A DNA stretch of 64,000 nt from an uncultured Bdellovibrio sp. (GTDB lineage: Bacteria; Bdellovibrionota; Bdellovibrionia; Bdellovibrionales; Bdellovibrionaceae), in assembly GCA_963932905.1 (NCBI GenBank), contig CAWVRN010000011.1, positions 32,001 to 96,000 of the forward strand, in the 5' to 3' direction. The notes beneath the pieces were generated by a model. It was not told the DNA's origin. It made no database searches and was given only the letters and a program-made list of their open reading frames with translations. Below are positions 4,110 to 32,210 of the stretch, piece after piece; position 1 is the first letter of the stretch, and each line of letters starts with the position of its first letter. A program made the position numbers and the translations under genes.

Positions 4110-4628
4110 ATGTTTATTGGGGGGCAATTTAGAAGATTGGCGGGCCAGATCGCGACGGGACGAAAAGTTTCCTCCAAAGCCACAATAGAGGCGCAAGTCA
4201 TTGACACCATTGATATTAATTTTGAGCCACTTTGGAAAGACAAACATTTCCTCCATCAAAAATACGTCCTTGAAGGGTGTTCAATAGCCCAAATTGCGGC
4301 TGAAATACTTTCCTCCAGGGAGGCTGTTCGCATGGGTTTAATTGAATTTGGGATCAAGCGAAAAAAGCGGGGAGAGCCGGGATTGAATCCATCCCAAGCT
4401 CCTTATGGTTTTAGAAAAGTCGAAGGCAAACTGATCACACATCTTGGTGAGCAGCGAGTTATAGAATCGATCAAAAAAATGTCTGAAAGTGGGCTGTCCT
4501 ATCGGACAATATGTGAGTTTTTGACCAGCATAAATGTACCGACGAAAAATCGTGGAAAGAGCTGGCAGCCGGAGATGATTCGTCGGATATTATCTAGATC
4601 TTCGGTGCAAGATATAAAGACTTCATAA
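4110..4628 (+). CDS. HTH + Recombinase (PF07508-like) domain; detached C-terminal module of the serine integrase
   Basis: APYGF...EQRVIESIKKM..SGLSYRTICEFL...VPTKNRGKSWQPEMIRRIL; no catalytic domain; contains the att core in-frame (LAG). Confidence 0.8.
   Translation: MFIGGQFRRLAGQIATGRKVSSKATIEAQVIDTIDINFEPLWKDKHFLHQKYVLEGCSIAQIAAEILSSREAVRMGLIEFGIKRKKRGEPGLNPSQAPYGFRKVEGKLITHLGEQRVIESIKKMSESGLSYRTICEFLTSINVPTKNRGKSWQPEMIRRILSRSSVQDIKTS
4136..4176. repeat. Left attachment junction: core ATTGGCGGG (4136-4144) + arm GACGAAAAGTTTCCTCCA (4159-4176)
   Basis: Core identical to 32102-32110 (tRNA 3' end); arm is the exact reverse complement of 32075-32092. Confidence 0.9.
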
Positions 4629-4776
4629 ATAAAAGTACAATGACCAGAAATGTTTTTTACGCCTTAATCTATTGGTCTAGTTGTGACGTCCTGTTAAAGT
4701 AATTTTATTTAGTCACTGCACCTTTCCACGACTAATTTACCGTTTAAAAAGTAGACGATCTTCCGAAAATCTACTT

Positions 4777-6318
4777 ATGAAAATTGATAAAAATAAAAAT
4801 TACATTTTTTGCGGTGATAACTTAGATTGGCTCCAGCAAGTACCAGATGAATCGGTCGATTTGTGTTACATTGATCCCCCATTTTTTTCTAATAGAAACT
4901 ATGAAGTTATTTGGGGTAACGGATACGAGCTTAGGTCTTTTGGCGATAGATTCGCGGGTGGAATTGGACATTATATTGAATGGATGCGCCCACGAATTGA
5001 GTTGATTCATTCTAAATTGAAAAAAACTGGAAGTATCTTTTTGCATTGTGACTGGCACGCATCTCACAAATTACGTTGTGTTCTCGATGACATATTTGAT
5101 GAAAGTAATTTTAGAAATGAAATAATCTGGAAGAGAAAAAATGGTAGTAACTCAACTGAAGAGGCGCCTCGTACAATGGCAAATGCGACTGATACAATAT
5201 TCTTTTATTCAAAAACAAAAGAATACTTTTTCAAACTCCCTTATGCCGCTTACGAAGAGGCTTATATTGAAAAAACATATAAAAGTAAAGATTCTAATGG
5301 CGATCGCTACACTTCATCCGATTTAAGGTCGCCAAGTCCACGGCCAAACTTAGTGTATAATTATAAAGGTTATAAACCACATCCGAACGGTTGGTCAGTT
5401 GAGTTAGAAAAAATGAAAGAGTTCGATCGACTTGGACTGTTGCTTTTTCCAAAAGATAAGAACGGTAGAATTAGGAAAAAGAATTATCTTAAAGATAGAA
5501 AAGGTGTGCCTTTGACTAATCAATGGTCCGATATTCCATTTTTGCAAGAAAAGTCGCCTGAGAAGTTGGGCTATCCTACGCAGAAACCGGAGGCTCTAAT
5601 TAGAAGAATAATTGAGACTGGTTCAAAAAAGGGTGATGTTGTGCTAGATTGTTTTGGAGGCGGTGGGACCACTGCCAAAGTATGCGCCGATTTAGGTAGA
5701 ACTTTTATTACGGGCGATGTTTCTCCTGTTGCTGTAAAAATTATGTCAGAAAGGCTTTTGTTCGATTGTGAAGGTATTAAATTTGAAACGAAAAACCTTC
5801 CACAGTCTGAAAAAGAATTGAAAAACTTGAACGGTCATCTATTTGCAGAAATCGTATGTGAAGTTATGGGCTGGGAAGTAAACGAAAAGAAATCAGGTGA
5901 CGGCGGTATCGACGGTTGGACTAGTGAGGGACTTCCAATACAAATTAAAAACCATAATACTACGGCAGCAGGCAGACCTGATATACAAAAGTTTTTCGGA
6001 GCACTAGCAAAAGAAAAGAAAAAGACCGGCATTTTTGTAGCTTGGCGTTTTGCAGGTGAAGCATACGAATATATTGCTGATATGAAGCGCGATCACAAAA
6101 TTGAAATCAAGGCGATAGAGTGTTCAAAAATATTTGGTGGACTGCTACTGGATTCTTCAAAAAGTAAAGAAATTGACGAATTGTACTTAGAGCGTAGACC
6201 TAAAGCGTGGGCATCAAATCAAGCCAAAGCAGAAGCGCATAGAAAGACTGTTGAAAAAATTAATGATGCGAAGAATAAAACTAAAAGAAAGAAAAAATCA
6301 GACGCAGAGGTTAGCTAA
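4777..6318 (+). CDS. Beta-class N6/N4 DNA methyltransferase fused to a C-terminal Mrr-like endonuclease domain
   Basis: YIDPPF, YPTQKPE, VLDCFGGGGTT; C-terminal SGDGGIDG...IQIK. Confidence 0.85.
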   Translation: MKIDKNKNYIFCGDNLDWLQQVPDESVDLCYIDPPFFSNRNYEVIWGNGYELRSFGDRFAGGIGHYIEWMRPRIELIHSKLKKTGSIFLHCDWHASHKLRCVLDDIFDESNFRNEIIWKRKNGSNSTEEAPRTMANATDTIFFYSKTKEYFFKLPYAAYEEAYIEKTYKSKDSNGDRYTSSDLRSPSPRPNLVYNYKGYKPHPNGWSVELEKMKEFDRLGLLLFPKDKNGRIRKKNYLKDRKGVPLTNQWSDIPFLQEKSPEKLGYPTQKPEALIRRIIETGSKKGDVVLDCFGGGGTTAKVCADLGRTFITGDVSPVAVKIMSERLLFDCEGIKFETKNLPQSEKELKNLNGHLFAEIVCEVMGWEVNEKKSGDGGIDGWTSEGLPIQIKNHNTTAAGRPDIQKFFGALAKEKKKTGIFVAWRFAGEAYEYIADMKRDHKIEIKAIECSKIFGGLLLDSSKSKEIDELYLERRPKAWASNQAKAEAHRKTVEKINDAKNKTKRKKKSDAEVS

Positions 6319-6565
6319 TTAGCCTTAAATTTGATTCGGAAATACGGGCTTTCTTAAGTGAAGAATTAAGAAGGCCTAAATAAAAATCTAATATTTCTTC
6401 GTACCTAGCAAGCTTTTGAGAGTCCTCGAAAATTTCAGAATTTAAAGAATCGCACTTCATAGAAATTTGTTCTATTTTCTGGTCGATTTGGTGTATTTCT
6501 AAGTTTGTAAGTATATTATTTTGCATTTGAAGTTTGTTGTTAAAAGCAAAAATCCTCCTTATCAA
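6311..6565 (-). CDS. Hypothetical small helical protein
   Basis: 84-aa ORF convergent with the methyltransferase; start uncertain. Confidence 0.35.
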   Translation of the reverse strand: MIRRIFAFNNKLQMQNNILTNLEIHQIDQKIEQISMKCDSLNSEIFEDSQKLARYEEILDFYLGLLNSSLKKARISESNLRLIS

Positions 6566-7746
6566 ATGAATAATACGAATCTGCCTAATACGCAGCGTTA
6601 ACCTATTGAAATTACAAATTCAAAACTGATTGTTGACCTTGAAAAAGTGTAATCAGCCTGGCCTGTAACGCGGCCTAGTTAAGGTGGTATGGAGTCGACC
6701 ACCGGATATAAAAAAACCAAATCGTCTTCAGAGTAGTTTATATATTGTAGGACACAATAGAGTTTGACTGCGAGATTCTGGAAGAGTTTTATAAAGTAGA
6801 TCTGGATCCTTCAGAAGAAGCCAGACCTACCCAGCTTTACGAGCGGCTTTGACCATCTTCGATCCAGCATTTAAACTGTCACATAGGTGATCTTTATAAA
6901 CAGTTACTAAGATTGAAATAAAGTGCTCGGAATATTCAAAATAATGGATAGCGACCCTAGAGTTTGAAATGGGCATTTTGCTAGTCCTCTTTCAATTGAA
7001 CTCACAAAATTGTTTCGGTAATCTTAGCGGTAAGGATGCACTTTTTATTTCTAATGAGTAACTGATTTTTTGAAACTCGTATATTAGTACTCCACATATT
7101 TAACTTCTTAAATAATCCCACTTTGTTAAATTGGCCCTATCATCCTGAAACATTTTCCGTATCTGCTTTGGTGTGGTTGACGGTTTGTAATAGGACCAAT
7201 ATCGCCGATTTGGAAGTCCCATGGGCCAGGCTTAAATGGGCTCGTGCTCAATGAAAATTGACGACTTAAATTGTCGTCGAAATTTGCTCTTGCAAAGAAG
7301 CTTTTCTGAGTGGTCTAATTCGATTTGGAATTGTCCCACGTCCTAATAAACAATGTCGAGAGAGTCCTTCTTAGCCAAATTTGGGTGGAGGCGAGTAAGA
7401 GACTTCTTATCGCCGCGTCTTGGCGAAAACAAAGTGGACAAAAGGGTCTGCAGGTATCTATCATAAGGATTTCCGCTGTGAAAAATTGCAGATGACCTAA
7501 GTCGGCTCGGAATTCTGACGAAGAATCGCCAAAGTCGGTCACACACAGACATGGTAAGTAGAATTTTACTGGGGCAAAAAAATCTAAAAAAACCAGCTAC
7601 TGCCTTGACATAGAGCAATTAAACGTCACATTTTGAGTGGACAGGTTCGCCCTCCGGGGTACTCGCGCTGGAGGGAATTTTATTTTTAAACACCAATCAA
7701 CAACACGCCTATTTACACAAACAGAATATCTCCCAGGTGCCTTCCG

Positions 7747-10700
7747 ATGACTTCATTTCAACGAGGAGTCATTGAGTTAAAGATTGAAGGTATGGAAGGG
7801 GGCCGATTCCAAGAGTTTGTTTTACGCTTTCTGCCTCTTTATAGCCCGTCGTATGATGGAATTGTTCGCAACGGTCATACTGAATTGGGCAAAACAAAAG
7901 CAGGTGTTCCTGATCTCTTGAAAACTCTCGATAATGGCGACCAGATTGGTGCCGAATGCGGAACTGGTGAAGATTACTGGAAACCACCAGAGGACGTGAA
8001 GAAGTATCCCGAATGGAAACCGATTGAAGATGCTGAGAAGTCCATTCAGAAAATGGCAAGACCCGTTGAGATCATCCTCGCATCAAGTCGTCCGATACCA
8101 GCCAACTATCCAAATGTTAAGACAGCAATAATCGACTACTTTGCGAGTAAAACCAATGCTCGAATCATTCTTTTAACTTGTACTGATTTGGCATCGTGGA
8201 TTGAAAGAAATCTGAAGAGAGCTGACATCTTTGAACTTTCTAAAGAGTTTTTCCCCGAGGTGGTCGAAAATCAAACTCTGATAGACGAACGGGACGCTCT
8301 TGCCTCAGTAATCGATTATGGCGACAAGTTTGGATTTCCCACAAAAGATATACTTCAAATTCTCAAAGCATCGGGGATCACGGATCCAGTTCTTCTTGAA
8401 CAGCAAATTGCAACTGAGATTTTCGGTGACGACACGAGATTCAGTTTAGAACATCCTGCCAGCTTTAATGGAATACCCAGATGCTCAAAGCATCTTCCAC
8501 TAATTTTGAACCCCTTTGGCAAAATAGTTCAGCTACTTGGGGTTCCCAAGATAGGCAAGTCCAACCTTTGCTGGGAAGCGATTACCCAGGCAAAGTACAA
8601 GTACAAATGGCTGTCGGTTCCTATTGATGAACAACAGCATACTGATTTTGTAGATGCCCTTCTGATCTTATTATACTCTCAGTTTATTTCTGTTTCCGAA
8701 GCGGTTAAAAAAGTTAAGGCCCTTGTTTCCACAAACGTGAGATTGCAAGAAAAAGAAATATCTCCCCTATATCTCGTGATAGACAACGCTCACTTTCTAA
8801 ACCTGAACCAACTCAAAAGACTAGACTTTGCTTTGAAAGAACTTCGATCACTGAGTCTTCTTTCAAAAATTGCAATCGTATTGATGACAAACAAAAATTT
8901 ATCTCAAGCGGTTTCGTCACTAGACACAGCGGCGGTTGCTCCGGCTTGGACAAGTGAAGAACTCAAGGAACTCATCACTCGAAAGAACCTGTTAGTAAGT
9001 GACCCGAAGCCCGACGAATACTTTGAGCTTCTTCAGTCCCAATGTAACGGCCACCCCTTATTTGCAGTGGCTCTGGCAGGAAAATATAGTGACCGCACCA
9101 AACTGATCTTAAATAAAATTGAGAGCCCAAAAGCTGACGACTCAGAATTATCAAATGAAATAAAATCCGTCCTTTATCAGGATATTTTAACAACCCCTGA
9201 CCAGCAAAATTTTGTTCAACGACTGTCCATTCTAACTGGAAAATCGAGTCAATCTGTTCTTGATGCTCTTAGAAAAGATGTCCAACCACAGATTCACACA
9301 ACCGTATCCAACCTTTCTGAACAAATTGGTCCAGCCGTATTGGAGGGATCTATTGAAGGTGGATTGCAAGTAAGCCCTGCCTTCAAAGAGGTCGCTAACA
9401 AAAAAATTGGCACCACCGAAAAAAATGAAACTTTCATTGCGGCAGCAAATACATTGCTCAAGTTTGAAGGTAAAACTTTATATGCCGATCATTGGATTGA
9501 TGGCATCTTCTACCTAATACTGGCAGACAATATTCCAAAAGCCGCTGCTTCTGCATTGCTCCTTCTAAATGGGATAAGCAACAACGATGAAAATAGAGAG
9601 CTAAATCTTAAATATACGCTTGATAGGTTGTTTTATTTCAAATTCTTAAAGAACAAAACATTAGATGGGATGGACTATCTTACCCTTTGCTCACTTCGAT
9701 TAATGATGGGACATCATCACGCAAGTTTAAACAATTTGAAGGAATCCGCTGAGTACCTCGAAGAAATTGATGTTGAAAAAATACAAAGTATCAAAGTTGA
9801 CTTTGATGGTGTTGAGGAAATGAAGCGATATCTTGTGATGGCTGTGCTGAGCTCCAGAGTCCTTGCCCTTGGCGAAATGAAAGACCCCGTAAAAACACTG
9901 GTCACCTACTTGGACTATCTGTCAAAAGCTCCTCCCGACGGCCCAAAATTTGAAGTGTATGAAATACTTCCGGGCTTAATCACTCGACTTAAAATTGATC
10001 AATTAAGGACCTTTAGTTTTTCAGTTTTAGCTGAACGACTTTATCCTGAGAGACTTTCTGATCTCGTGAAAGTGGCTATATCTATTGGGTATGCAGCTAG
10101 AAATGATGATCTTTTGCAAAAGAATATATTTTCTTTGCGTGTGGACATTCCAAGCAGCAACCTATTTCTGGAGCTTGCTCGTTCATCATTGCTTTCAAAT
10201 ACAGATAAATATCCAGAAGCATTGGGGCTGATTTTAAAAATTGAGAAAAGCATTGCTGATAGAGGCAAAGATCCAAATAAACTGGGTGGAACTTTCTATC
10301 AACATTTTGCTGACACAGTATGGGGAACCAAAGACCATCAAGGTTCGATCGCATACTACAAAAAGTCTTCCGAACTAGAGCCAAACGAGTCTGAGTCATT
10401 TTTAGCTTGGAACCAGTACAAAATCGGTTTTGCGAGTACCGATGAAAACGAAATCATAACCAACTTCACAGAATCGATAGCTAAATTTATCAGTGTTGAA
10501 AATTATGATCAAGGCAGTAGAGCATTGGGGGCTTTAGCGGCCTTTCACATTTCTAAGAAAAACTATGCTGAAGGAATTAAGACTGGATTTCGTTTGGCCG
10601 AATGGTTCCATAAAGATAAGAAATCTGAAGCAGGTCCCTCTTTACGCTTACTACTGGCACAAATGCTTAGATCCAAACACGACATCACGGGAGAGTCACT

Positions 10701-11685
10701 TTCCCATCCAGGCATGAATTTCCCTTTACCGGAAAGACAATTCTATTTAACAATTCAATCTGAAGTGACACCTGAAGCTGGTGGAGTAATTACCTATCAA
10801 GTAATTTCAAACTTTGCAAAAACCGTAGGTGAAAATGGCCTCGCAATAGAAGCGCTAAAAAGTGCAATTTACTCTGATGTCACTGTAGAGATGGATCGAA
10901 ATACGCTAATTATAAATTGGTTCGACCTTTTTGGACTCTTATCTCCAGAGGATTTTAACGAATATGAGGTATCTCTTTTTATAAAAAAATTGTTGCAGTA
11001 TCAGCCGATACCTGCGGCAAAAAATGAAGCAGCCTATATGCAAGGCTTCTTTGTGCCATTTGAAAACAGAGCTAAAAAGGAACCTTCGGTTTGGTCTCCC
11101 ATTCTTTCAAAAGTTGTTGAGATTACTCGAAATATCGTCAGTGACATTGACAGTACCCTGGCGGATAGATGGTCTGCTCGCCTGGATTATTACGAAGGAC
11201 TTTCGTGTCTTCTTTCAGGTGCCTCACATAGGGCTTACAACCTATTTAGACGTGCTTGTAGAGATGCACTTTCAAAGGAAATCTGGGACATAGGAGAAAG
11301 TGCGGCATTTTCAGCTTCATTTGAACTGTGGCAACAGCATCCATCCTTGCTCGATGCTGGAACGGCCAGTTTTGATCTTCTAAAAGTGATTGAAGCGCAA
11401 AGTCCAAACGCAGATAAAATTAGAGTTTTAGGAATCAATCTTTATAAATTTTGGTCTGTCTGTTCCTGGGGCAGATTAAGTACATCCGACTATCAAATAA
11501 AAGATAGGTTATTCGACGGAGCCAAGGTTTTAAAAAGTCACTCTTTTACAGAGGAAGAAGCTAGTCCGGTCATGGTTGCTCTTTTAAAAAAATCATTTGG
11601 TGATTACGATTCAACCAAACCAACAATCAGTTCCAAAAAAATTCCAGATGAAGTTCTTAAAATTCTTGAAAAAGAAAGCCGATGA
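7747..11685 (+). CDS. Avs/STAND-like anti-phage protein: N-terminal PD-(D/E)xK-type nuclease, P-loop NTPase, helical TPR-like C-terminus
   Basis: GGRFQEFV...GKTKAGVPD...AECGT; Walker A GVPKIGKS; Walker B YLVIDNAH; CNGHPL (GxP); long helical C-terminal region. Confidence 0.65.
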   Translation: MTSFQRGVIELKIEGMEGGRFQEFVLRFLPLYSPSYDGIVRNGHTELGKTKAGVPDLLKTLDNGDQIGAECGTGEDYWKPPEDVKKYPEWKPIEDAEKSIQKMARPVEIILASSRPIPANYPNVKTAIIDYFASKTNARIILLTCTDLASWIERNLKRADIFELSKEFFPEVVENQTLIDERDALASVIDYGDKFGFPTKDILQILKASGITDPVLLEQQIATEIFGDDTRFSLEHPASFNGIPRCSKHLPLILNPFGKIVQLLGVPKIGKSNLCWEAITQAKYKYKWLSVPIDEQQHTDFVDALLILLYSQFISVSEAVKKVKALVSTNVRLQEKEISPLYLVIDNAHFLNLNQLKRLDFALKELRSLSLLSKIAIVLMTNKNLSQAVSSLDTAAVAPAWTSEELKELITRKNLLVSDPKPDEYFELLQSQCNGHPLFAVALAGKYSDRTKLILNKIESPKADDSELSNEIKSVLYQDILTTPDQQNFVQRLSILTGKSSQSVLDALRKDVQPQIHTTVSNLSEQIGPAVLEGSIEGGLQVSPAFKEVANKKIGTTEKNETFIAAANTLLKFEGKTLYADHWIDGIFYLILADNIPKAAASALLLLNGISNNDENRELNLKYTLDRLFYFKFLKNKTLDGMDYLTLCSLRLMMGHHHASLNNLKESAEYLEEIDVEKIQSIKVDFDGVEEMKRYLVMAVLSSRVLALGEMKDPVKTLVTYLDYLSKAPPDGPKFEVYEILPGLITRLKIDQLRTFSFSVLAERLYPERLSDLVKVAISIGYAARNDDLLQKNIFSLRVDIPSSNLFLELARSSLLSNTDKYPEALGLILKIEKSIADRGKDPNKLGGTFYQHFADTVWGTKDHQGSIAYYKKSSELEPNESESFLAWNQYKIGFASTDENEIITNFTESIAKFISVENYDQGSRALGALAAFHISKKNYAEGIKTGFRLAEWFHKDKKSEAGPSLRLLLAQMLRSKHDITGESLSHPGMNFPLPERQFYLTIQSEVTPEAGGVITYQVISNFAKTVGENGLAIEALKSAIYSDVTVEMDRNTLIINWFDLFGLLSPEDFNEYEVSLFIKKLLQYQPIPAAKNEAAYMQGFFVPFENRAKKEPSVWSPILSKVVEITRNIVSDIDSTLADRWSARLDYYEGLSCLLSGASHRAYNLFRRACRDALSKEIWDIGESAAFSASFELWQQHPSLLDAGTASFDLLKVIEAQSPNADKIRVLGINLYKFWSVCSWGRLSTSDYQIKDRLFDGAKVLKSHSFTEEEASPVMVALLKKSFGDYDSTKPTISSKKIPDEVLKILEKESR

Positions 11686-11810
11686 AAGTCTTCATGAGAT
11701 ACAGCAACAGCGATCTGGAGTTTGCTAAGGGAGTTGCTACAACGATTAATTCTGGAGTGCGGAATGCCCAAAAAAGTTTCCAATCATATGCTCGTAGGGT
11801 GGAACTATAG
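11682..11810 (+). pseudogene. TIR-domain N-terminal remnant
   Basis: MKVFMRYSNSDLEFAKGVA resembles the TIR start KVFISYSxxDxxFA; ATGA overlap with the upstream stop; ends after 42 aa. Confidence 0.55.
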
Positions 11811-11850
11811 ATATTATTTTCAAGTATTGATTTCCATAAATTTTTGATAA

Positions 11851-12414
11851 TTACTTTTTGATTACGCCCTGATAGTCTAAAAGTAGCTTTTTCATCGGGA
11901 TAAGTACTCTATTTTCTTTCCGAACTTCGGATAGATTCCCAAGATACTCAAAAATACTTCCGCCTTGCTTATTTTCAACAGAAGTTTCATACTTGGAAGT
12001 CGTTGCACCCGTTGTTGGATCTTGTATCTCTAATAAAGAAGGGCATTTTTTAATATCTCCCGTAGCAACAATACCAAATGAAAAAATCCGAATTACCATA
12101 TTTAACTGATTTGAATCAGATGGAAAGTGTCCGGTTGTTTCACATTTTAAATATGTAAACTTCAACTTTGATTTTTGTGACAATTCGTTTCCTCTCTTAT
12201 TTTGTCTTATTACTTCATTTTCTATTGTTTTCTTAATATCTATGTAATCGAAATCGTGATTTGCAATCCCTGTTTTGTCTTCAACTTCGATAACAGCTGA
12301 AATCCCATCCATATATTCAAGATCGGCCACGGCAATTCTTTCCAATCTCGTTGGACCAGTTATTACACATCCACTAACGGACAAAGCCAGAACAATTGAA
12401 AATATTTTTCTCAA
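11851..12414 (-). CDS. Lipoprotein, possible orphan immunity protein
   Basis: TTG start with RBS GGGGAAG; RKIFSIVLALSVSGC lipobox. Confidence 0.6.
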   Translation of the reverse strand: MRKIFSIVLALSVSGCVITGPTRLERIAVADLEYMDGISAVIEVEDKTGIANHDFDYIDIKKTIENEVIRQNKRGNELSQKSKLKFTYLKCETTGHFPSDSNQLNMVIRIFSFGIVATGDIKKCPSLLEIQDPTTGATTSKYETSVENKQGGSIFEYLGNLSEVRKENRVLIPMKKLLLDYQGVIKK

Positions 12415-12561
12415 GTCTTCCCCAATTAAAAAATCATTATCATTCCACCGTATATTATTCCATGGCCCCAAAGAGTTTTTTCATCTTGGGACATTCTTGC
12501 AACCTGCATTTTTCTAATATAACGGTTGAGGTTTTTATTACTAAAGTAATATAGTTTAAGT

Positions 12562-13842: not shown

Positions 13843-13852
13843 TATATCCTTA

Positions 13853-23018: not shown

Positions 23019-23633
23019 TTGAATCAATGCTGTTGTGTAAGAAGTAAACGAGCTGTAATTGTTAAACTTCCAGGAATTCAAAAAATCGATCGGCGCAGGT
23101 CGGGGCAAATTCCTCCGGCCAGCATGATAAAAGCCATTTTACTATCGGGAGCATCCAACGGTCCTGTTCGAGTGGAAGTCACTGAATCTTTGAGAATTCA
23201 GGGTGAAACTTTGATTCCCGTAGGCGCAACCATGTTTGGATCTGGGCAGTCCACTGAAGAGCGACTAATAATTAGATTTTCAAAAGTCATATTTAAAGAC
23301 GGCAGTTTTGAAGACATTAGTGCACAAGCTGCCGATATTGAGGATAAAACCATCGGTCTTCGTGGATCAAGAGTTGGCAAATACGCAATGAAGTATGCGG
23401 CAGCGGTGGGACTTAATTTTGCCGGAGGTATGGCCGAAGGACTACAAGATCGAGAGGTCGTCGGTCAACAGGTAGTAACAAAGCCAAGTGCTAGAAATAC
23501 CTTACTCAACGGTGCCAGCAAAGCGACTTTAGAAATGGCTAATGATTCGATGACTGAACTTAGAAACAATGCACCCATCATACATATTCCTGTTGGAACT
23601 GAAATCTATGTGATGTTTGAGAGTGGGCTGTAG
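23019..23633 (+). pseudogene. TrbI/VirB10-like C-terminal domain, 5'-truncated
   Basis: IPPASMIKAIL...LIPVGATMFG...ERLIIRF...IHIPVGTEIYVMF; no N-terminal TM anchor or credible start. Confidence 0.65.
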
Positions 23634-23951
23634 GCAATAAACGCAGAGGCTTAAAATTGAATTTACAAATTTTGTAGACAGGACTCGCAACTAGATCGAC
23701 AATTTCTAACCTTTTTTTAGAATAATGTCACTTATTTCCAAAAAAAGTATTCATGTATGGGGATCGTGCTTGTTTGGCAGCGTCCCACTCTGTATGATTG
23801 CAATTCAAAAATCCACAAGTGCCTCCGCGAATAGTGAGTTTGAAGTATTAGAGGCAGCGGACTAAGTTTCAAATTATGTTTTGGAACTCATCGTCAATTT
23901 GAATGACGAAAATAGAGGCCAAATTTACTAGTTTGTTGCTATCATATTTTC

Positions 23952-24908
23952 ATGTCAACATTTGCATTGCAGCTTAAAATCATTCAAAGTCATCCTCGTT
24001 TTAGCATCAATATTTTTTCTGAATTTGAACAAATTGCTGCCGCATATTCCGATGCCGACCTCCTCGAATATTTGCTGCCAATGTTTTGTTTACCTGATAT
24101 GTCGGACCAAGTTATTAAAAACATGGAACTTCAAGAGATGGCAACTAACTCGTGGCTAATGTCTCATAAACCAAAGTTTCTGATTGATTTAAGATTAAGG
24201 CTTTTTACTTCTTCGATAGAGGGGCAATTAAAACTTCTTTTTGATATTTTGTCTGACTGGCTAGTAGCAACTCACTCTGTCACTGCACGAAAGCAGGATA
24301 CGCTAGGAGTGGTATTCAAACATATCGAAACGAATAAAATGTTTTTGCCTCCTAACACATTGGCATACGTCAACGGCTTCAGTAACATTATCGAGATAAG
24401 AAACGCCATTTCACACAACTCTTATCTAATCTGCATTGAAACAGTCCCACTAACACCCAATCAACTGGTTTCAATAATTCAAAGTAAACTGTCAGCTAAG
24501 GCGCTGATAATGTTCAATGCGTTCATAGCAGGAGTTCATCCTACTAACTTAGGTAAAACTTTGAAAATCACAGAGTTGATCGGAAAGGTAATTGGGTTTA
24601 AACCTGATATTTCTGTGCTTGAATCGGTAGACAATAATAAATCAAATGTCGTCTATGAGAATTATCCACCTGGAAAATGGAGACCAATCACGAAAACAAG
24701 TCCAACAATTTCGCTTTCTGATTTAACAAAAGCGCTTAATACATTTGATGAGTTTTCGTTTGCAGCATTTTTTGGATTAATGGCCGAGTTTGACAGGAGA
24801 TTTAAATCTGGTAGTTATTTAGAACGATTTTGCGGATGTAAGGCCGCAAATTATTTGTTAATCGGAACAGTAAATTTTGATTGTTGGTATTGCGGCGCTC
24901 ACAACTAA
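23952..24908 (+). CDS. Hypothetical protein with HEPN-like RxxxxH motif and C-terminal Cys cluster
   Basis: IRNAISH; CGC...CWYCG. Confidence 0.5.
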   Translation: MSTFALQLKIIQSHPRFSINIFSEFEQIAAAYSDADLLEYLLPMFCLPDMSDQVIKNMELQEMATNSWLMSHKPKFLIDLRLRLFTSSIEGQLKLLFDILSDWLVATHSVTARKQDTLGVVFKHIETNKMFLPPNTLAYVNGFSNIIEIRNAISHNSYLICIETVPLTPNQLVSIIQSKLSAKALIMFNAFIAGVHPTNLGKTLKITELIGKVIGFKPDISVLESVDNNKSNVVYENYPPGKWRPITKTSPTISLSDLTKALNTFDEFSFAAFFGLMAEFDRRFKSGSYLERFCGCKAANYLLIGTVNFDCWYCGAHN

Positions 24909-25123
24909 GAATTGCCTATTATTCTTCATCCGCTAGTAGAATAACCTGACCTTATGGGAAATAACGCTGATAATTAAATAAAAGTATCTGATGGAAATAT
25001 TTGCAATTATTTTCTGTCATCGGTATGCACGAAAAGTGTATGCTATGCCTTTAAATCCAAGTACTGAATATTGTAATCAGGTTTCACGACCGCCTAATAT
25101 ATAAACCACAATAGCCTCCCAAA

Positions 25124-26587
25124 ATGAAAAAACAAAACGACCTTCATGAGCGTATTCAAGCGACGCTCAAAAATATTTCGCTACTTCTTGAACCCATCAA
25201 AGAACTGATTCGAGGGATGAAAACCAATACCATTCCCTGGCACATATGCGCGGGTTGGACGGTGGGCTCTGTGTTGGTGCTCTTTTTTAAAATTGATCTA
25301 TTCGTTCTTAGCCATACACGGTTCAGTGGTCTGTACCCTTATCATCCAATCCTTTACAAGATTTATGCTTTTTCTTTTTCGACTTTAGGTTTTTGGGTTT
25401 GGGCCTGGGCCGAGGTCAGAAAGAAAAGAAACAAGCTTAAAATTCTCACTAATGCGTTAAAGAACGCCGGGCTTGAGTCAAAAATTGGCCGTCTTCCCAA
25501 TCTCATTTCAGATTATCCACTCGATCCTTTGACCCGAAAGATGCGTCTTACCAATGCAGGATTTCCGGTCTCAAGTTTTCGTGATCAGTCGAAGTATATT
25601 GAATCTGAACTTGGCGTTTTCATTGACGAGATCAAAGAAAATCGCGAAAGACGTGCTGTCGACATCATCTATTCGCATTTTCCAATGGCAAATGAGGTTT
25701 TGTATTCTCAAAATTCAACTGCACGTTCTTATGAATTTCTAGTAGGACAAACAAGAGCCCATGCAATCACGGCGACACTTCGAGATACGCCGCACTTGCT
25801 CGTGGCCGGACAAACGGGGGGTGGTAAGTCGACATTTCTTCGGCAATTGATCGTGCATCTTTATATTCATGAGAAGGGATGTAAATTTTTACTAATTGAT
25901 CTTAAAGGCGGTCTTGAGTTTTCGATGTTTGAAAATCGTAAGTCATTCGTAGTTGTTCCTCATGTGCTGGCGGCAGTTGAACAGCTTCAACATATTAATA
26001 CTCTACTTGATGAGCGAATGGTTTTCTTAAAAGAAAATCAATGCAAAGACATCGACAGCTATTTCAAAAAAGAAAAGAAGGCCGAAAAGCCTATCAATTT
26101 ATCACGCCAGATCGTGGTCGTTGATGAAGCTGCAGAAATGTTTTTGGCTGGTCATCACGCAAAGTCCATCGAGGTTCAAGCCGCTCGCGCCATCTTGAGT
26201 CGAATTGCGAGGCAAGGTCGAGCAGTTGGTATTCATATAATTGTGGCAACCCAGCGTCCTGATAGTCGATCACTTGATCCTCAGGTTAAAGCCAATCTCA
26301 CAGGTGTTATTTGTTTTCAAATGATGAACGATGCTTCAAGTATCGCGGTCCTAGGAAATGGACGTGCTACGGATCTGCCAAAAATTCCAGGTCGCGCTAT
26401 TTGGAAGAATGGAATCGAAATGATCGAAGTTCAAACTCCGTTTTTGTCTGTCGAAGCGGCAGAGATTCTTCTGGGTGCTCCAGACAATGTGCAGAAAGAT
26501 AAAACAAAAGACAGCCAAGACAATTCCAAATCGGTTTCTTGTTCGAGTGATGCTGACCAAACACTGGATCCATCCCTTACTGAATAA
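25124..26587 (+). CDS. FtsK/SpoIIIE-family ATPase (TcpA-like coupling protein/translocase)
   Basis: 2 TM helices; PHLLVAGQTGGGKS; IDLKGG; VVVDEAAE; GRAVGIHIIVATQRP. Confidence 0.9.
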   Translation: MKKQNDLHERIQATLKNISLLLEPIKELIRGMKTNTIPWHICAGWTVGSVLVLFFKIDLFVLSHTRFSGLYPYHPILYKIYAFSFSTLGFWVWAWAEVRKKRNKLKILTNALKNAGLESKIGRLPNLISDYPLDPLTRKMRLTNAGFPVSSFRDQSKYIESELGVFIDEIKENRERRAVDIIYSHFPMANEVLYSQNSTARSYEFLVGQTRAHAITATLRDTPHLLVAGQTGGGKSTFLRQLIVHLYIHEKGCKFLLIDLKGGLEFSMFENRKSFVVVPHVLAAVEQLQHINTLLDERMVFLKENQCKDIDSYFKKEKKAEKPINLSRQIVVVDEAAEMFLAGHHAKSIEVQAARAILSRIARQGRAVGIHIIVATQRPDSRSLDPQVKANLTGVICFQMMNDASSIAVLGNGRATDLPKIPGRAIWKNGIEMIEVQTPFLSVEAAEILLGAPDNVQKDKTKDSQDNSKSVSCSSDADQTLDPSLTE

Positions 26588-26611
26588 TTTAGGCCGTCGA
26601 AAGGTACTTCA

Positions 26612-27493
26612 ATGAAAAATAAAAAACATTGTGAAATTACTGATCGTGATTACAAACTTCTGAGATTTCTCTGGAAATGGAAAGTAGTTTCAACTAAAGC
26701 CCTTGCAAAAAAGTTTTTCTATGAAGCCAATGCTTTCACAGCATATCGTCGTCTGCTTCACTTAGAAAGTGATGGATTCATTGGTGCCTATCCTGTTGAT
26801 GGACGATTCAATGAAGCGTGGATTTTGAAAGAAAAGGGATTCAAATATATTCTTCCGCATCTTGGAGATTTACAATCGAAGGGGTACAAGTCTGCGAATT
26901 ATCCCCACGACTTCTTGGCGACAGCTTTCCATCTCGGTGATTGGCTAACCCAGCAGCCAGGAAATACTCAAACCTACAGTGAACAGCAACTTCGGTGTTA
27001 TCCTGCGGACCTTTGGCCACCTTGGATACCGCGATCAGCACTGCATAGACCTGATGGGTATTCGGCGTATCAGTCGAGTGAAAAACGAGTCGTTGTTGCG
27101 TTTGAAGCCGAGATCTCACCCAAGGCCAAGAAACGTTATGAAAGAGTCGTTACTTTCTACGATAACCAACCCGGTATTCATTATGTCTTTTGGTTGGTTG
27201 ATTCAAAAGGCACGTTGAATAGTGTTCGACGTAATTTTGAAAAGCTTCAGGTGCGTGAGTGGTCCAAACACCAGTTCATTCTTCTCTCAGAATTTAAACA
27301 GAAAGGCTGGTTGGCTCAGTTTATTGAGGGCAAATCAACAGGTGGAAGCCCTTTTCAGTTTCTTTGTCCGAATCCACACTCAATCCCCCCTCAATCCTCA
27401 CTCAGCTGTGGGACCCTGGCACTTCTCGATTCCCGCAGAAGACCAATCAATTCAACAACCTGCCCCTTCAAGCCAAATGCCCAAAAAGCCTGA
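26612..27493 (+). CDS. Replication-relaxation (Replic_Relax-like) protein
   Basis: ITDRDYKLL winged helix, YPHD, RPDG, AFEAEISPKAKKRY; adjacent to the FtsK gene. Confidence 0.75.
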   Translation: MKNKKHCEITDRDYKLLRFLWKWKVVSTKALAKKFFYEANAFTAYRRLLHLESDGFIGAYPVDGRFNEAWILKEKGFKYILPHLGDLQSKGYKSANYPHDFLATAFHLGDWLTQQPGNTQTYSEQQLRCYPADLWPPWIPRSALHRPDGYSAYQSSEKRVVVAFEAEISPKAKKRYERVVTFYDNQPGIHYVFWLVDSKGTLNSVRRNFEKLQVREWSKHQFILLSEFKQKGWLAQFIEGKSTGGSPFQFLCPNPHSIPPQSSLSCGTLALLDSRRRPINSTTCPFKPNAQKA

Positions 27494-27620
27494 CATACTT
27501 AAGCAGCCTTATAGTCTGCTTGGTCCCGCTAAACCCTATCGCCTCCATATTACCAAACTCACTACCTATTCCTTTTAAAAAATAAAAGTCTCTAAACAAT
27601 TAAACTAAGGAAGTAAAGTT

Positions 27621-28025
27621 ATGGAGTTAAAAGAATTAGCGGCATTATTTGTTCTGCCCCTTTTACATAATGCCTGTTCAACTGCGCCAAAGTCAGTTCT
27701 CACTGGGGCCGTCATTGGTGGAGTGGCGGGCGCGGGTTTGGGCCAATCTCAAAATTCTCAAGCGACCGCCATTGGTGCATTGGTCGGAGCTGGTATTGGA
27801 TCTCTAATTGGTTACTCGGCATTTAACGATAAACAAAAAAAGTCGGTCGTCAATACTAGTGCTAAAAATGAAAACAAAAACGAAAGTACCGAGGATTACA
27901 CACCGTTTATCACAAGGCCTAAAATCAGATCTTATATTGTGCCCGATACCATTGAAGGAAACAAATTTATTAAATCCCACCGAATTTTCATCTTAGACGA
28001 CGCGGGGTCTTGGTCAAAAGACTGA
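27621..28025 (+). CDS. Glycine-zipper lipoprotein, possibly TraV-like
   Basis: Lipobox-like HNAC; GAVIGGVAGAGLG; RPKIRSYIVP. Confidence 0.6.
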   Translation: MELKELAALFVLPLLHNACSTAPKSVLTGAVIGGVAGAGLGQSQNSQATAIGALVGAGIGSLIGYSAFNDKQKKSVVNTSAKNENKNESTEDYTPFITRPKIRSYIVPDTIEGNKFIKSHRIFILDDAGSWSKD

Positions 28026-28086
28026 TTCAGTTTAGCTAGTCAGAATAATTTTTTAAGAGACACGAATTTTTATCAAAGGACAATTC

Positions 28087-29448
28087 GTGAATTTTCAAAC
28101 ACACTTAGGCGACTCACTAGAAATTTTAAAAAAGATTCCCTCAAACTCTGTTGATTCTCTTGTTACTGATCCTCCTGCTGGAATTGGTCTGCTGGGTCTT
28201 GACTGGGATAAGGACAAGGGCGGAAGAAAAGAATGGATCGCATGGCTCACACGGATCATGACCGAGTGCCATCGTATTCTAAAACCCGGTGCTCATGGAT
28301 TTGTCTGGGCTATCCCGCGAACGTCCCACTGGACAGGAGCGGCGTTGGAAGATGCTGGCTTTCAGGTTAAGGATGTCATCACCCATATCTTTGGAAGTGG
28401 CTTTCCTAAAAGTGTTGCAATTGATAAGGCCATCGACCGAGCAAAATACACAAACACAGATGAGCTTTTCAAAGTGACCGATTGGATCAGATCACGACGC
28501 AATGAACTTGGCATCACCAACAAACAGCTCGATGAAATAGCCGGAGTTAAAGGCGGAGCTTGTCATTGGACAGCGAAACTTCCACATCGACAACCACACA
28601 TTCCAACAAAAGAGCGATGGGAAAAATTGGAAGCTGTTTTGGGTCCAGCACCAGATTGGGTGAACGGCATGATCAGGCCTTCCCATGAACTCGGTGAGAA
28701 TTGGTCCAAACGAAACGTTGTTGGGCAGTATAAAAAAGATGCAGGTGGAGTTGGAGGTGTGGCTTTTAAAAGTACACATAACAGTATGACCGAGCCAGTG
28801 TCAGATTTGTCAAAACCATGGCAAGGGTGGGGTACCGCTTTGAAGCCAGCAAGTGAACACTGGATTCTAGTCCAAAAACCAATTTCGGAGCATAATATTG
28901 CGGCCAACATATTAAAGCATAGAGTAGGCGGAATTAATATCGATGATTCTAGAATTCCCACAAAAGAAAAAATACCATCTACATCCAATTTAGATTTTAA
29001 AGACGGCAGGTTTATTTGGGAAACTGGAGAGCGAAGTCAAAACTCTGTTTATCATCAACACCCAAACGGGCGGTTCCCAGCTAATATCATTGTAACTAGA
29101 TCAAACGAACTAAACTGTCCCGCACGGATAATGAATGATCAAAGTGAACTTGAAACTGAGGTCGCAGGATATTTTAAAAATTTCAAACCTGAAGTTCCCT
29201 TCTTTTATAGTAAAAAGCCGAGTAAAGGTGAGCGAGGTGAAAACAATATTCATCCTACAGTAAAACCGCTCAGACTCATGCGGTACTTATGCAAAATGGT
29301 GACCCCTATGGATGGAACCGTGCTTGATCCTTTTATGGGATCGGGTACCACCGGTGTGGCAGCATTATTTGAGAAGTATAGTTTTATCGGAATCGAACGT
29401 GACGAGAATTATTTTAAAATCGCAAGAAATCGTTTAAAAGGAGTTTAA
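28087..29448 (+). CDS. Beta-class DNA methyltransferase with inserted XRE-like HTH
   Basis: VTDPPA, HPTVKP, VLDPFMGSGTT; insert WIRSRRNELGITNKQLDEIAG. Confidence 0.85.
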   Translation: MNFQTHLGDSLEILKKIPSNSVDSLVTDPPAGIGLLGLDWDKDKGGRKEWIAWLTRIMTECHRILKPGAHGFVWAIPRTSHWTGAALEDAGFQVKDVITHIFGSGFPKSVAIDKAIDRAKYTNTDELFKVTDWIRSRRNELGITNKQLDEIAGVKGGACHWTAKLPHRQPHIPTKERWEKLEAVLGPAPDWVNGMIRPSHELGENWSKRNVVGQYKKDAGGVGGVAFKSTHNSMTEPVSDLSKPWQGWGTALKPASEHWILVQKPISEHNIAANILKHRVGGINIDDSRIPTKEKIPSTSNLDFKDGRFIWETGERSQNSVYHQHPNGRFPANIIVTRSNELNCPARIMNDQSELETEVAGYFKNFKPEVPFFYSKKPSKGERGENNIHPTVKPLRLMRYLCKMVTPMDGTVLDPFMGSGTTGVAALFEKYSFIGIERDENYFKIARNRLKGV

Positions 29449-29449
29449 C

Positions 29450-29848
29450 ATGAGCGAAAATGAATTAGAAAAAAAGCCAAACCTGAAATATGAGCATATT
29501 GCCCTATCTGAAACTTCGAGTTTAAAAATTAATAACTGGTTAGATCAGGTCGCGCTAAAGAAAAAAGGTGTTAAGATAACCAGAAAACAATTTGTTAATT
29601 GGTTGATTGAAAAAATGCCTGATAATTTAAGCGGTGGCGATTTAGCATCACTTATTGATCGTTTCTATGACGAAGTGAAATTTTTACGGCATTTATTGCG
29701 CGAGGCAAATCAAGCTAAAGCCGAAGGCAAATCTGAAACCGGATACGAATTCGTGGTTAAAACTAAAAGACAGGAAGTTAAGCGCGAGCTAATTGAAGAC
29801 CAGTCCGAAGGGGATTCTGATCCTGTGTCTGAGTCCACGCTAAGGTAA
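29450..29848 (+). CDS. Hypothetical protein
   Basis: ORF with RBS AGGAG, coupled to the methyltransferase. Confidence 0.65.
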   Translation: MSENELEKKPNLKYEHIALSETSSLKINNWLDQVALKKKGVKITRKQFVNWLIEKMPDNLSGGDLASLIDRFYDEVKFLRHLLREANQAKAEGKSETGYEFVVKTKRQEVKRELIEDQSEGDSDPVSESTLR

Positions 29849-29982: not shown

Positions 29983-30303
29983 ATGTCTAACGAAGAAATT
30001 TCGGATCTTGGGCGATATTGCAGTAAATGCAGTTCGTTTAAATCTTGGGATCATTTTGATAAAAAGTCGACGGGTATTAATGGAAGGCATAGTAGATGCA
30101 AATCATGTATAAAATTTCAAAAGAAAAAATGGTGGAGAAAGAAGAATACTCGAAAAATTTCATCGCCAGAGGTTTTGATATATTCCAAATCCGATTTAGA
30201 AATTTTAGAAATTCCTCTCATAGGTCAGGAAAAACGAGATTTAGAAAATATTTTCCGTCGCTTGATATTTCAATCTTTGATTTCAGAAAAGGAGAATAAG
30301 TAA
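29983..30303 (+). CDS. Small Zn-finger protein coupled to the integrase
   Basis: CSKC...CKSC; TAATG overlap with the integrase start. Confidence 0.65.
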   Translation: MSNEEISDLGRYCSKCSSFKSWDHFDKKSTGINGRHSRCKSCIKFQKKKWWRKKNTRKISSPEVLIYSKSDLEILEIPLIGQEKRDLENIFRRLIFQSLISEKENK

Positions 30304-32210
30304 TGAATTCAGAATTGTCGCCGATCGTAGGAAAAATGAAAATTGGCTGGGCATTGATTAGGGTGTCGACAAAAAATCAGGCCGAGGTTCAGCATGGATC
30401 GCTTGAACAACAGAGACATATGCTGGAAAGGTGGTCGACTCAGCAAAGTGAAGCTTCTGGCCGTCACTATGAAATTACAAGATTCTTTGAGGAAGATATT
30501 AGTGGTCGCGGAAAGGCCATCCATAAACGAATGGCCTTGATGGAAATAGATCGAGCCATCGAATCTAAAACAATCGATTTTATCGTTTTTGAAAAAGTGG
30601 ATCGGTTAGCTCGAGATATGATCTATAATTTGGGACTTGTAAAAAAGGCCCAGGAATATGGAGTGGAGGTTCACGAGTTTGAATCTGGTCAAATTGATCT
30701 AAGAGATCGTGGTAGTCGGTTAGGTTTTAATATTAAAAATCTCTTAGCCGAAGAATACAGTTTAGACCTTGAAGAAAAAATTACTAAAAAACAGAGGGAA
30801 GCAAGAGTCAATAATGGTAAAGATACGTCAACATGTCCAGTTTTAGGATTGGATGCTCATCCAGCTAAGAGAGGAATGTATGTCGTTAACAAAAACGAGC
30901 AAAAAATCGTAATCGATATTTTTAAGAAATTTGTCGAATGTGGATCTGTCAAAGAAACGTCGAAGTATTGTATTCAAAAAGGATATCGAAATAAAATTCG
31001 TCTTACGAAAGAAAAGGTGGATAAAAACGGAAATATTATTCCACCAAAACAAGTTGGAGGGGAACTGTTAGAACCTAGGCGGGTGCGGTATTTATTAAAC
31101 AATCAAAAAATCCGAGGCTATAGCTTTTTTCAAGATACCTGGAATCAATTCAAAAAAGAACAAAATGAAAAAGGGTTTGTGAGATGGGATTACCCACACG
31201 GACCAGTGGTTCCGTCGGAGTTATATGAGGAAGCTCAGCGCGTTTTGGGGAAGAATCAAAAATTTGATGCTCGAACGCGAGCTAGTGTGTATTTGCTGAC
31301 GGGAATATTGGAATATGAAGATGGGACTAGGTTTTCGGGAGCGGGTGCTGGCGGCAGAAATAGTCATTACGAGTATTATCATTGCCGAAAGCAAAAACTC
31401 CGAATACCAAAAACAAAAGTGGAAAACTTAATTCTAAAAAGAATTAAAGACTATATGAAAAACTCAGAACTGCTGACTAAACTTCTAGCCGATGTAAAAC
31501 CAATGGCTGAAATGGGAATACCATTTTTGAAAGAGGAAATACGGCAGATTAAGCAAAAGATCAATGACAACCGCAAAGTGATTGACGGTTTTACAAATTA
31601 CCTAAGACAGTCGGCGCTGACTGATCCGACCAACCTTGAAAAGGTAATTCGTACGATAAGTATAGAAAGGGATAAAGCCGAGACAGAAACTCAATTTTTA
31701 GAACGCGATTTGGTGAATAAAGAAAATCAACTCCGTGAGTTATCTTCTGAACATCAGGAGAAGGGTCTTCGGGATTACTTGGAACAAGTCTTGGAAAATT
31801 TTGACAACTTAGACGACAATAAAAAAAGGGAAATCATTCATACGATTATTCCTAAAATAGAAGTGGTTCCAAAGAACAAACTGCGCCTTCATATTCGCAC
31901 CGACTTTCGAGGTGATTCCAGAAAATGGAACGACGGCAAACGTAGCGAGTCAAATTTTGGGCATGAGGTAGCCTCCTACCGACCGCCGGTCGGCATGGAA
32001 CAAAGTGGTGGCTCTGATGATTCAGAGGCCGATTTAAATTTATCTGATTTCAGTACAAAAGAGGCTGTCACACCTGGAGGAAACTTTTCGTCTCGGGGAA
32101 AATTGGCGGGGTGGACGGGACTCGAACCCGCGGCCTTCCGCGTGACAGGCGGACGTTATAACCAACTTAACTACCACCCCCGTGGTAAGCTCAAGAAGAA
32201 TTATTTATAA
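30303..32210 (+). CDS. Large serine recombinase (integrase), integrated-state isoform
   Basis: IRVST catalytic Ser, EDISG, DRLAR, recombinase domain, YLLTGIL...YYHC degenerate Zn-ribbon, coiled coil. Confidence 0.92.
   Translation: MNSELSPIVGKMKIGWALIRVSTKNQAEVQHGSLEQQRHMLERWSTQQSEASGRHYEITRFFEEDISGRGKAIHKRMALMEIDRAIESKTIDFIVFEKVDRLARDMIYNLGLVKKAQEYGVEVHEFESGQIDLRDRGSRLGFNIKNLLAEEYSLDLEEKITKKQREARVNNGKDTSTCPVLGLDAHPAKRGMYVVNKNEQKIVIDIFKKFVECGSVKETSKYCIQKGYRNKIRLTKEKVDKNGNIIPPKQVGGELLEPRRVRYLLNNQKIRGYSFFQDTWNQFKKEQNEKGFVRWDYPHGPVVPSELYEEAQRVLGKNQKFDARTRASVYLLTGILEYEDGTRFSGAGAGGRNSHYEYYHCRKQKLRIPKTKVENLILKRIKDYMKNSELLTKLLADVKPMAEMGIPFLKEEIRQIKQKINDNRKVIDGFTNYLRQSALTDPTNLEKVIRTISIERDKAETETQFLERDLVNKENQLRELSSEHQEKGLRDYLEQVLENFDNLDDNKKREIIHTIIPKIEVVPKNKLRLHIRTDFRGDSRKWNDGKRSESNFGHEVASYRPPVGMEQSGGSDDSEADLNLSDFSTKEAVTPGGNFSSRGKLAGWTGLEPAAFRVTGGRYNQLNYHPRGKLKKNYL
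32075..32110. repeat. Right attachment junction: arm TGGAGGAAACTTTTCGTC (32075-32092) + core ATTGGCGGG (32102-32110)
   Basis: Inverted partner of 4159-4176; core overlaps the tRNA CCA end. Confidence 0.9.
32104..32180 (-). tRNA. tRNA-Asp(GTC)
   Basis: 77-nt cloverleaf GGGGTGG...TCCGC-CTGTCAC-GCGGA...TTCGAGT...CCACCCCGCCA. Confidence 0.97.

Follow-up and report, generated by a model that had tools for sequence, protein, structure and literature searches.

A serine integrase of a Bdellovibrio integrative element probably carries its attachment site within its own reading frame

In a 64,000-nucleotide stretch of DNA from an uncultured Bdellovibrio sp. (GenBank assembly GCA_963932905.1, contig CAWVRN010000011.1, positions 32,001 to 96,000; below, the window), an integrative element occupies positions 4136-32110 at the 3′ end of a tRNA-Asp gene, where it was probably inserted by its own large serine recombinase (LSR). 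A reading made from the sequence alone had pointed out that the short core at both ends of this element is read in one and the same frame, by the integrase gene on the right and by a small open reading frame (ORF) on the left. The locus therefore raises the question of whether these two frames are parts of one gene, which is joined on the excised circle and cut on integration, and what the longer protein would do. We consider it probable that the attachment site of the element (attP) lies inside the integrase frame, that the circle encodes an LSR, a linker and an additional module in one protein, and that integration cuts this gene in the linker. The feature is real and conserved; its functional meaning is what we infer from it.

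The core, ATTGGCGGG, is found on the forward strand at 4136-4144 (attL, joining the host flank to the element) and at 32102-32110 (attR). The only tRNA that ARAGORN found in the window is tRNA-Asp(gtc) at 32104..32180 on the reverse strand, the integration target. Because of this position, the attR core is antisense to the 3′-terminal CCA of the tRNA, and the integrase ORF closes with 32 codons of antisense tRNA plus flank. The core codons, TTG GCG GGx, are codons 601-603 of the integrase ORF (30303..32210, +), which reads them as TTG GCG GGG, and codons 10-12 of the module ORF (4110..4628, +); all coordinates given for this shared frame in the sequence-only reading hold. An unrelated third copy of ATTGGCGGG is present at 2648-2656 (−). 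Three matches in the window compare with 0.38 expected, and none of 100 shuffles reached three, yet nine common bases are weak evidence if taken alone.

Nine bases being short, the match might be a coincidence and the region not a mobile element bounded by these sites. No same-species empty site was found; the left flank matches G006 alone, where other genes follow and no tRNA is present, and the left-flank genes occur in one of nine other genomes of the genus. Comparative data have already refuted this explanation, which we regard as hardly credible: the core is the tRNA end, similarity breaks there, the rebuilt attP is symmetric, and the same architecture recurs at five targets. The tRNA-Asp is 100% conserved in relatives, and their chromosomes align with the window only rightwards from 32099-32104 (G003 at 78%, G009 at 69%, also G008 and G001). 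The right flank of the element is kept in G003, G009, G008 and G006, and on the left the alignment of G006 ends at window position 4071. A junction of the form xTGGCGGG CC... was observed at the 5′ end of module-ORF relatives, following unrelated upstream sequence (35 genome and 35 metagenome loci). Occupancy varies, since the same flank precedes tRNA-Asp in G003 (L002) and in L019; in the protein P0001, the reading frame of the G003/L019 tRNA flank is joined at the core to a module 88% identical to that of the window. The tRNA end, the similarity break, the attP symmetry and the recurring junction confirm that the sites at 4136 and 32102 are real attachment sites.

The integrated gene encodes a protein of 635 aa which, by ORF, profile and structure model, is a whole LSR: a folded enzyme (about residues 10-536), a disordered linker (537-600), the core codons (601-603) and a tail (604-635). 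The sequence-only reading had described a 635-aa integrated form with a complete serine integrase and a 32-aa tail read antisense through tRNA-Asp. ORF and ARAGORN agree on the length and the tail, and PHROG, AlphaFold and Foldseek on the completeness. PF00239 was matched at residues 19-170 (E 1.5e-17) and PF07508 at residues 198-317 (E 5.3e-8), and the catalytic Arg-x-Ser, R20 and S22, is invariant across 26 aligned relatives. The PHROG 95 'integrase' profile spans residues 12-546 (E 4e-68). The best full-length relatives (1511 hits) are 549-618 aa long, with the alignment reaching approximately residue 530-556. The AlphaFold model, built with 26 sequences, has a mean pLDDT (predicted local distance difference test) of 77, falling to ~30 for residues 537-635. 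It shows the catalytic domain, a long helix (136-171) followed by the recombinase domain, of mixed alpha/beta type (183-322), strands (336-369), long helices (370-483) and terminal strands (518-530). The top Foldseek matches were whole serine integrases, 9dxh (E 2.6e-17 over 575 columns) and then phiC31, Bxb1 and 4kis. The Pfam zinc ribbon (PF13408) gave no match to the integrase at E ≤ 0.01, and cysteines are few; a PDB sequence search with the integrase profile matched catalytic domains only.

Directly before the integrase lies a Cys-rich ORF of 106 aa (29983-30303), the end of which coincides with the integrase start. PHROG links it weakly to endonuclease VII/HNH zinc-finger families, and it could be an accessory factor. 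It gave no tblastn match in any of the collected relative loci, and the impression of a similar Cys-rich ORF in L085 was not supported by tblastn. A second, distant serine recombinase (25% identity) is present on another contig of the same genome (G000:C12:20758-22206).

The ORF at the left end (4110..4628, +) encodes 172 aa and was characterized from the ORF itself, a partial PF07508 match and its predicted fold. In the predicted structure, residues 1-36 form a disordered leader that crosses the core, residues 45-79 a three-helix helix-turn-helix (HTH), and residues 101-171 a beta-hairpin with helices, resembling the first half of a recombinase domain. PF07508 was matched at residues 114-163, over profile positions 3-51 of 102 (E 2.2e-6), and PHROG 95 over profile positions 232-309 (E 8e-10). 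The nearest solved folds, all weak (E 4.5e-3 and worse), were LSR recombinase domains and paired/Tc3 bipartite DNA-binding domains. We regard the ORF as a predicted DNA-binding module. BLASTP of the module against the integrase showed no likeness; a recent duplication of the enzyme's recombinase domain is therefore not the origin of the module. Given the domain layouts of both ORFs, the crossover sits in a disordered linker of about 100 residues between a whole enzyme and an additional module.

Relatives of the module are common in the order. Its profile matched 122 of 384 genomes, mostly in open frames of 150-200 aa, and 69 relatives are stand-alone ORFs of 100-217 aa; a scan of IMG/VR with the same profile gave no relative. 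A promoter and terminator scan of 3600-4800 found nothing above shuffles. On another contig of the same genome a weak second module-like stretch was seen (G000:C17:78476-78685, 29% identity).

A scripted join of 30303-32110 to 4145-4628 gave 2292 nt, encoding 763 aa and a stop, on an excised circle of 27,966 bp. Both the circle and the 763-aa ORF of the sequence-only reading were thereby reproduced, and the partial PF07508 match and the predicted fold bear out the HTH and recombinase-domain-like module that it had predicted for the excised form.

Whether the frame across the core is conserved was examined in related elements. LSR relatives were present in 17 of 384 genomes at E ≤ 1e-40 and in 67 of 384 at E ≤ 1e-15. 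The test set consisted of elements in which an integrase runs into a tRNA and a module lies upstream in the same orientation on one contig. The core was defined as the first six antisense bases of the tRNA, the integrase frame as the long ORF entering the tRNA, and the module frame as the tblastn frame of the module domain. In all 17 resolved elements the core has one and the same phase in integrase and module, and both frames are open, as the sequence-only reading would have it; the codon phase covaries. The targets are tRNA-Asp, tRNA-Asn, tRNA-Pro, tRNA-Ala and a tmRNA-like site, giving nine target/phase classes. At tRNA-Asp the phases are xTG GCG GG (the window and G187), xxT GGC GGG (G034C3, G063 and G302) and TGG CGG G (G030C8); at tRNA-Asn they are xTG GCT CA (G053, G007, G111C43 and G121-E2), AAT GGC TC (G098) and TGG CTC (G121-E1). 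The phase is xxT GGT CG at tRNA-Pro (G226 and G227), xTG GTG GA at tRNA-Ala (G278 and G279) and TTT GGT GG at the tmRNA-like end (G034C1b). Thus all three codon phases occur at tRNA-Asp and at tRNA-Asn, and the partner ORF follows each time.

Over the 50 codons before the core, the integrase frame was open in 17/17 elements and the other frames in 0/34. In the stretch of 23-45 codons that separates the core from the module domain, 17/17 module frames were open, against 8/34 of the other frames. In four modules the stretch between core and domain is devoid of ATG, GTG and TTG, so that independent initiation there would be impossible. A phase match by chance would have a probability of (1/3)^9, ~5e-5, if the nine target/phase classes are treated as independent. 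Three pairs were left out: G324, where the contig stops short of the tRNA; G034C1a, with a wrong partner and a run of N; and G121a, in which an outer module had been combined with the tRNA-proximal integrase and the frames did not match. Its place was taken by two pairs that follow the order of the genes, G121-E1 and G121-E2. On that contig (G121:C13) two integrases and two modules stand in a row, E1 in phase TGG CTC and E2 in phase ATG GCT, and the joint between them is out of phase. The core position was set by hand for G034C1b and G121-E1. These results show a family-wide conservation of frame across the core, joined by the single-ORF forms described below, and show that selection maintains the LSR-linker-module frame.

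The rebuilt attP itself was then considered. In the window, an 18-bp perfect inverted repeat (32075-32092 with 4159-4176) stands on either side of the core. The dyad score is 26/35, with the centre inside the core and predicted to fall between 32108 and 32109; the maximum of 2000 shuffles was 21, and none equalled it. The rebuilt attB, attL and attR scored only 15-16/35. The outer repeat of the P arm (32075..32092, +) encodes G-G-N-F-S-S of the integrase linker. That of the P′ arm (4145..4176, +), at 4159-4176, encodes G-R-K-V-S-S of the module leader, and TCCTC lies 28 nt from the centre. Of the 17 rebuilt sites of the family, 13 share the position of the best centre, which falls 5 nt past the T of the antisense CCA end, and in seven the dyad score beat all 200 shuffles. 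TCCTC at 28-33 nt from the centre was found in 9/17 P arms and 9/17 P′ arms, compared with 0/17 B′ arms and 1/17 B arms, the latter really being the P arm of G121-E1. The symmetric part of the window attP extends to ~34 bp from the centre. In the solved structure of the Listeria integrase, only a 25-bp half-site is contacted (PMC3783163). The conserved outer motif beyond 25 bp is without counterpart in the canonical picture of serine integrases.

A further likeness concerns the inner arms. The heptamer ACGGGAC stands 10 nt after the core in the P′ arm (window 4145-4165) and 4 nt after it in the tRNA arm (32111-32125). This 6-bp offset resembles the shift of the zinc-ribbon motif, which in the structural account of the Listeria integrase is 5 bp closer to the centre in attB than in attP (PMC3783163); a 7-mer could also recur by chance.

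Single ORFs carrying both parts, of the kind for which the sequence-only reading had called, do exist. P0220 is a single ORF of 738 aa with PF00239 and a C-terminal piece of PF07508, and a fused LSR-module ORF of 744 aa (G005:C32) comes from the window's own genus, on a contig with no terminal overlap and no tRNA. P0085 is a fused ORF of 671 aa with the N-terminus cut, and G111:C43 holds a partial fused ORF of 529 aa. In-frame junction fragments were found in P0022, P0061 (the same as L026) and P0052, and in-frame array junctions in G111:C43 and G278:C11. L026 retains a symmetric attP, with 26/35 matches and the same centre. In this locus (positions 1-4450, metagenome-assembled genome record SG_bin7), the symmetric attP-type site links a linker-only fragment to the module, with no serine recombinase body upstream; just upstream are a tyrosine-integrase-like ORF, named by eye (318..1421), and a 349-aa ORF (1631..2680).

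Several observations weigh against a single gene spanning the core. Fused full-length proteins are rare, two in one search against 69 stand-alone module ORFs, and a search for longer fused forms by way of the window module returned none among 458 candidates. Such rarity is expected if assemblies mostly capture the integrated state, which is no proof. The G005:C32 ORF has no symmetric site at its candidate core, and the dyad score was at background in 8 of the 17 rebuilt attP sites. In the frame test, related elements are not independent samples, and G121 was re-paired after the first, out-of-frame outcome had been seen. When four groundwater metagenome runs were compared with 29500-34000, no attP or empty-site junction for the window element was found among the ends listed, nor did any of these loose ends fit the P′ arm or the B arm of this host; this check used assembled contigs at low depth (host flank 3-9; integrase pieces in run X1 alone, ~2.5), and the tRNA is common to many organisms, so that the outcome favours neither side. 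Given an ATG of its own at 4110, preceded by a GAGGA-like stretch, the window module could also be made alone. Finally, there are six junctions at which integrase and module are contiguous but not in one frame: L071, L101 (G255:C171), L102 (G030:C96, the same as P0112), L131 (G150:C3), L133 (G111:C4) and L115 (G121). These six are the main evidence for the module as a separate gene.

On such grounds the module could be an independent accessory gene at the element's left end, for example one for a regulator or a directionality factor. Its open frame across the core would then be a relic of an old fusion that serves no purpose today, and the fused protein would be irrelevant. The 69 stand-alone ORFs, the presence of the module in 122/384 genomes and the ATG at 4110 fit this explanation. 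So does L101, in which the module starts at an ATG in the core right after two in-frame stops while the integrase continues in another frame, as do L071, L131 and L133, which keep intact overlapping out-of-frame ORFs for both proteins. A merely inherited frame would, on the other hand, have been lost, given how much the linkers on either side differ in length and sequence; the phase nevertheless matches in 17/17 elements, with three phases at each of two targets. Four modules lack a start codon between core and domain, and the integrase frame alone is open over the 50 disordered-linker codons up to the core in 17/17. The out-of-frame junctions, moreover, lack dyad symmetry in four of five cases (L101, L131, L133 and L115 at 14-16/35; L071 scored 20, with a shuffle maximum of 19), as for arms that are not cognate. 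We therefore think it quite unlikely that the module is only an accessory gene.

Only in G121 was an out-of-frame junction seen directly to be a hybrid, formed between two tandem elements that differ in phase. We take the remaining junctions to be hybrid joints as well, because each combines phases that exist in separate elements, because the module leader of L133 is of the G302 type with an integrase in another phase, and because dyad symmetry is at background in L101, L131, L133 and L115. Programmed frameshifting at these junctions was rejected, since the offsets are of either sign (+1 and −1) and the arms lack symmetry. Tandem pile-ups at one tRNA were observed in G121:C13 (L114-L116), G111:C43 (L103 and L117), G278:C11 (L124-L126), L058/L059 and G003:C34. 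Neighbour joints in these arrays are integrase-module junctions, in frame only if both neighbours share the codon phase.

Tandem insertion may also have shaped the window itself. A decayed, frameshifted second module copy lies at 7270..7568 (+; FGWR..., ...LGILTKNR...MVSRIL), with no recognisable core beside it, and probably marks where an older tandem element ended on the left. Its presence suggests that two tandem elements, 4136-7200 and 7200-32110, once stood here side by side, and the outer module may then derive from a different element, older or newer, than the integrase. In that case the integrase at 30303 and the module at 4110 would belong to two elements, the true partner would be the copy at 7270-7568, and the 763-aa join would never have been made here, the principle still holding in the family. 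The commonness of tandem arrays (G121, G111:C43, G278:C11, L058/L059 and G003:C34) is in keeping with this history. The P arm next to the integrase and the P′ arm next to the outer module, however, form a perfect 18-bp inverted repeat and are in phase, whereas hybrid joints elsewhere are without symmetry, and the interval 6318-7270 showed neither a core nor a remnant of an integrase. The arms are near-identical across the subfamily, which means that the 18-bp repeat is not decisive. On balance a two-element origin of the window pair seems unlikely, and we keep to the reading that integrase and module are one gene on the circle.

Other arrangements of attachment sites were noted among relatives. 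In L019, an inverted copy of a P′-type arm (7915-8140) lies ~200 bp upstream of an apparently unoccupied attB beside tRNA-Asp, and a module with an attL-type junction stands 4.1 kb to the left, with no integrase between. In L025 (1396-2310, a Bdellovibrio sp. record), a 93%-identical integrase is interrupted by a transposase-like ORF and, after the core, is joined to non-tRNA sequence, reading ...LAGQMERV. The same joint recurs in protein P0128 and in run X2, where a contig has a loose end at window 32111, and may represent a secondary attachment site.

How might a gene of this kind work? We suggest that attP would lie in the disordered linker between the LSR (catalytic, recombinase and zinc-ribbon-like domains with a coiled coil) and the C-terminal DNA-binding module, the circle encoding one protein of 763 aa. 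Integration would cut the gene in this linker, leaving a 635-aa part that ends in a meaningless tail read through the tRNA and, at the far end of the element, the module as a leaderless ORF, which may be silent at attL or may be expressed from the flank. The long form would be produced from the circle only. Its module would make contact with both attP arms at their conserved outer motifs, which lie ~28-33 bp from the centre, and this contact would favour attP binding and integration. The truncated chromosomal form, having no outer contact, would handle P-type half-sites less, with a bias to staying integrated. That the long form is the integration enzyme, with its module on the outer attP arms, and that the truncated form stabilises the insert, is a tentative proposal which we hold possible, if somewhat doubtful. 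Doubtful too, in our view, is the full switch, in which the enzyme sequence reports the state of the DNA: a circle-only long form would clamp the outer attP arms and drive integration, and integration would delete the module and lock the element in, making a one-gene directionality switch in a family with at least five tRNA-type targets.

The module could also modulate the coiled coil instead of binding DNA. This alternative is drawn by analogy with engineered fusions of an integrase to its recombination directionality factor (RDF), which shift activity from attP × attB to attL × attR. In a study of such fusions (phiC31 Int-gp3 and Bxb1 Int-gp47), a partner tied by a linker to the C-terminus changes the site pairs that are recombined, and the integrase C-terminus is placed near the coiled coil (PMC5737554).

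If the proposed switch is true, recombination rewrites the C-terminus of the enzyme, a built-in record of 'free' versus 'integrated'. The family shows one enzyme scaffold re-aimed at different tRNA ends with the frame across the crossover kept, which may be of use in understanding, and perhaps in designing, target choice. Serine integrases are prized as tools because they are simple and one-directional. How their direction is set and reversed in nature is under active study, and to our knowledge its control has so far been explained by separate directionality factors only.

The remainder of the element (4777..29848, genes on mixed strands, assigned by profile scans) holds cargo and putative transfer genes. 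They include an N6/N4 methylase-Mrr fusion with an Mrr-type nuclease domain (4777..6318, profile match), a 1312-aa protein without a family (7747..11685), a 2632-aa Rhs-repeat protein with NHL and Ig-like parts (13853..21754, −), a TrbI-like protein (23019..23633, E 8.5e-19), an FtsK/SpoIIIE-family ATPase (25124..26587, E 4e-22) and a second methylase (28087..29448), so that two DNA methylase genes lie within the element. The Rhs-repeat gene is flanked by small ORFs without a family (11851-14016) and resembles a polymorphic-toxin-type locus. Neither a relaxase nor a full transfer set was recognised in scans of the element proteins. The element does not look like a prophage and is perhaps mobilisable or conjugative.

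The sequence-only reading knew of no serine integrase of this kind, and a full-text literature search, with most subscription journals and preprint supplements outside its coverage, likewise returned none with attP in its own reading frame or with a C-terminal domain swapped on integration. With known LSRs (phiC31, Bxb1, the Listeria A118-type, SPbeta SprA and TP901-1), the window integrase shares the resolvase catalytic domain with Arg-x-Ser, the recombinase domain and a short dyad-symmetric attP with a small core; its predicted structure also has, as they do, a beta-rich domain into which a long coiled coil is inserted and which closes with beta strands. The motif shift is alike as well, 6 bp between P′ and B′ here and 5 bp for the Listeria zinc-ribbon motif in the structural description cited above (PMC3783163). 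It differs from them in that attP lies within the integrase frame and in the additional HTH and recombinase-domain-like C-terminal module after a ~100-residue disordered linker. Its attP symmetry reaches ~34 bp as against a 25-bp half-site, its targets are tRNA 3′ ends, and PF13408 is not matched.

In the SSV1-type tyrosine integrases of fuselloviruses and related archaeal elements, attP lies in the int ORF and insertion is at a tRNA gene; int is split on integration and restored on excision. The window element is alike in attP position and tRNA target. It is not an SSV1-type partitioned integrase: SSV1 has a tyrosine enzyme that is itself split, whereas the window has a serine enzyme and the cut falls after the complete recombinase. 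In integration-dependent immunity, known from the mycobacteriophages BPs and Brujita, the repressor is truncated on integration. Corynephage CyranoPS likewise has attP in the 3′ part of the repressor gene and a state-specific C-terminus (10.64898/2026.10.29.762952). As in those systems, attP of the window lies in the 3′ part of a gene, and the free and integrated forms encode different isoforms; there, however, a repressor loses a short tail and the integrase is a tyrosine enzyme, whereas here a recombinase gains or loses a whole module. The Int-RDF fusions are similar in that an accessory part is tied to the integrase C-terminus by a flexible linker, but they are man-made, and their RDFs are unrelated to the module. 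In Tn4451 with its joint promoters, and in ICEclc with Pcirc, the circle joint alters integrase expression. The window resembles them in that the joint alters the output of the integrase gene, at the level of transcription there and of protein sequence here. The principle of an attP inside a gene, known from archaeal tyrosine integrases and from the repressors of phages, would be extended to serine recombinases of bacteria.

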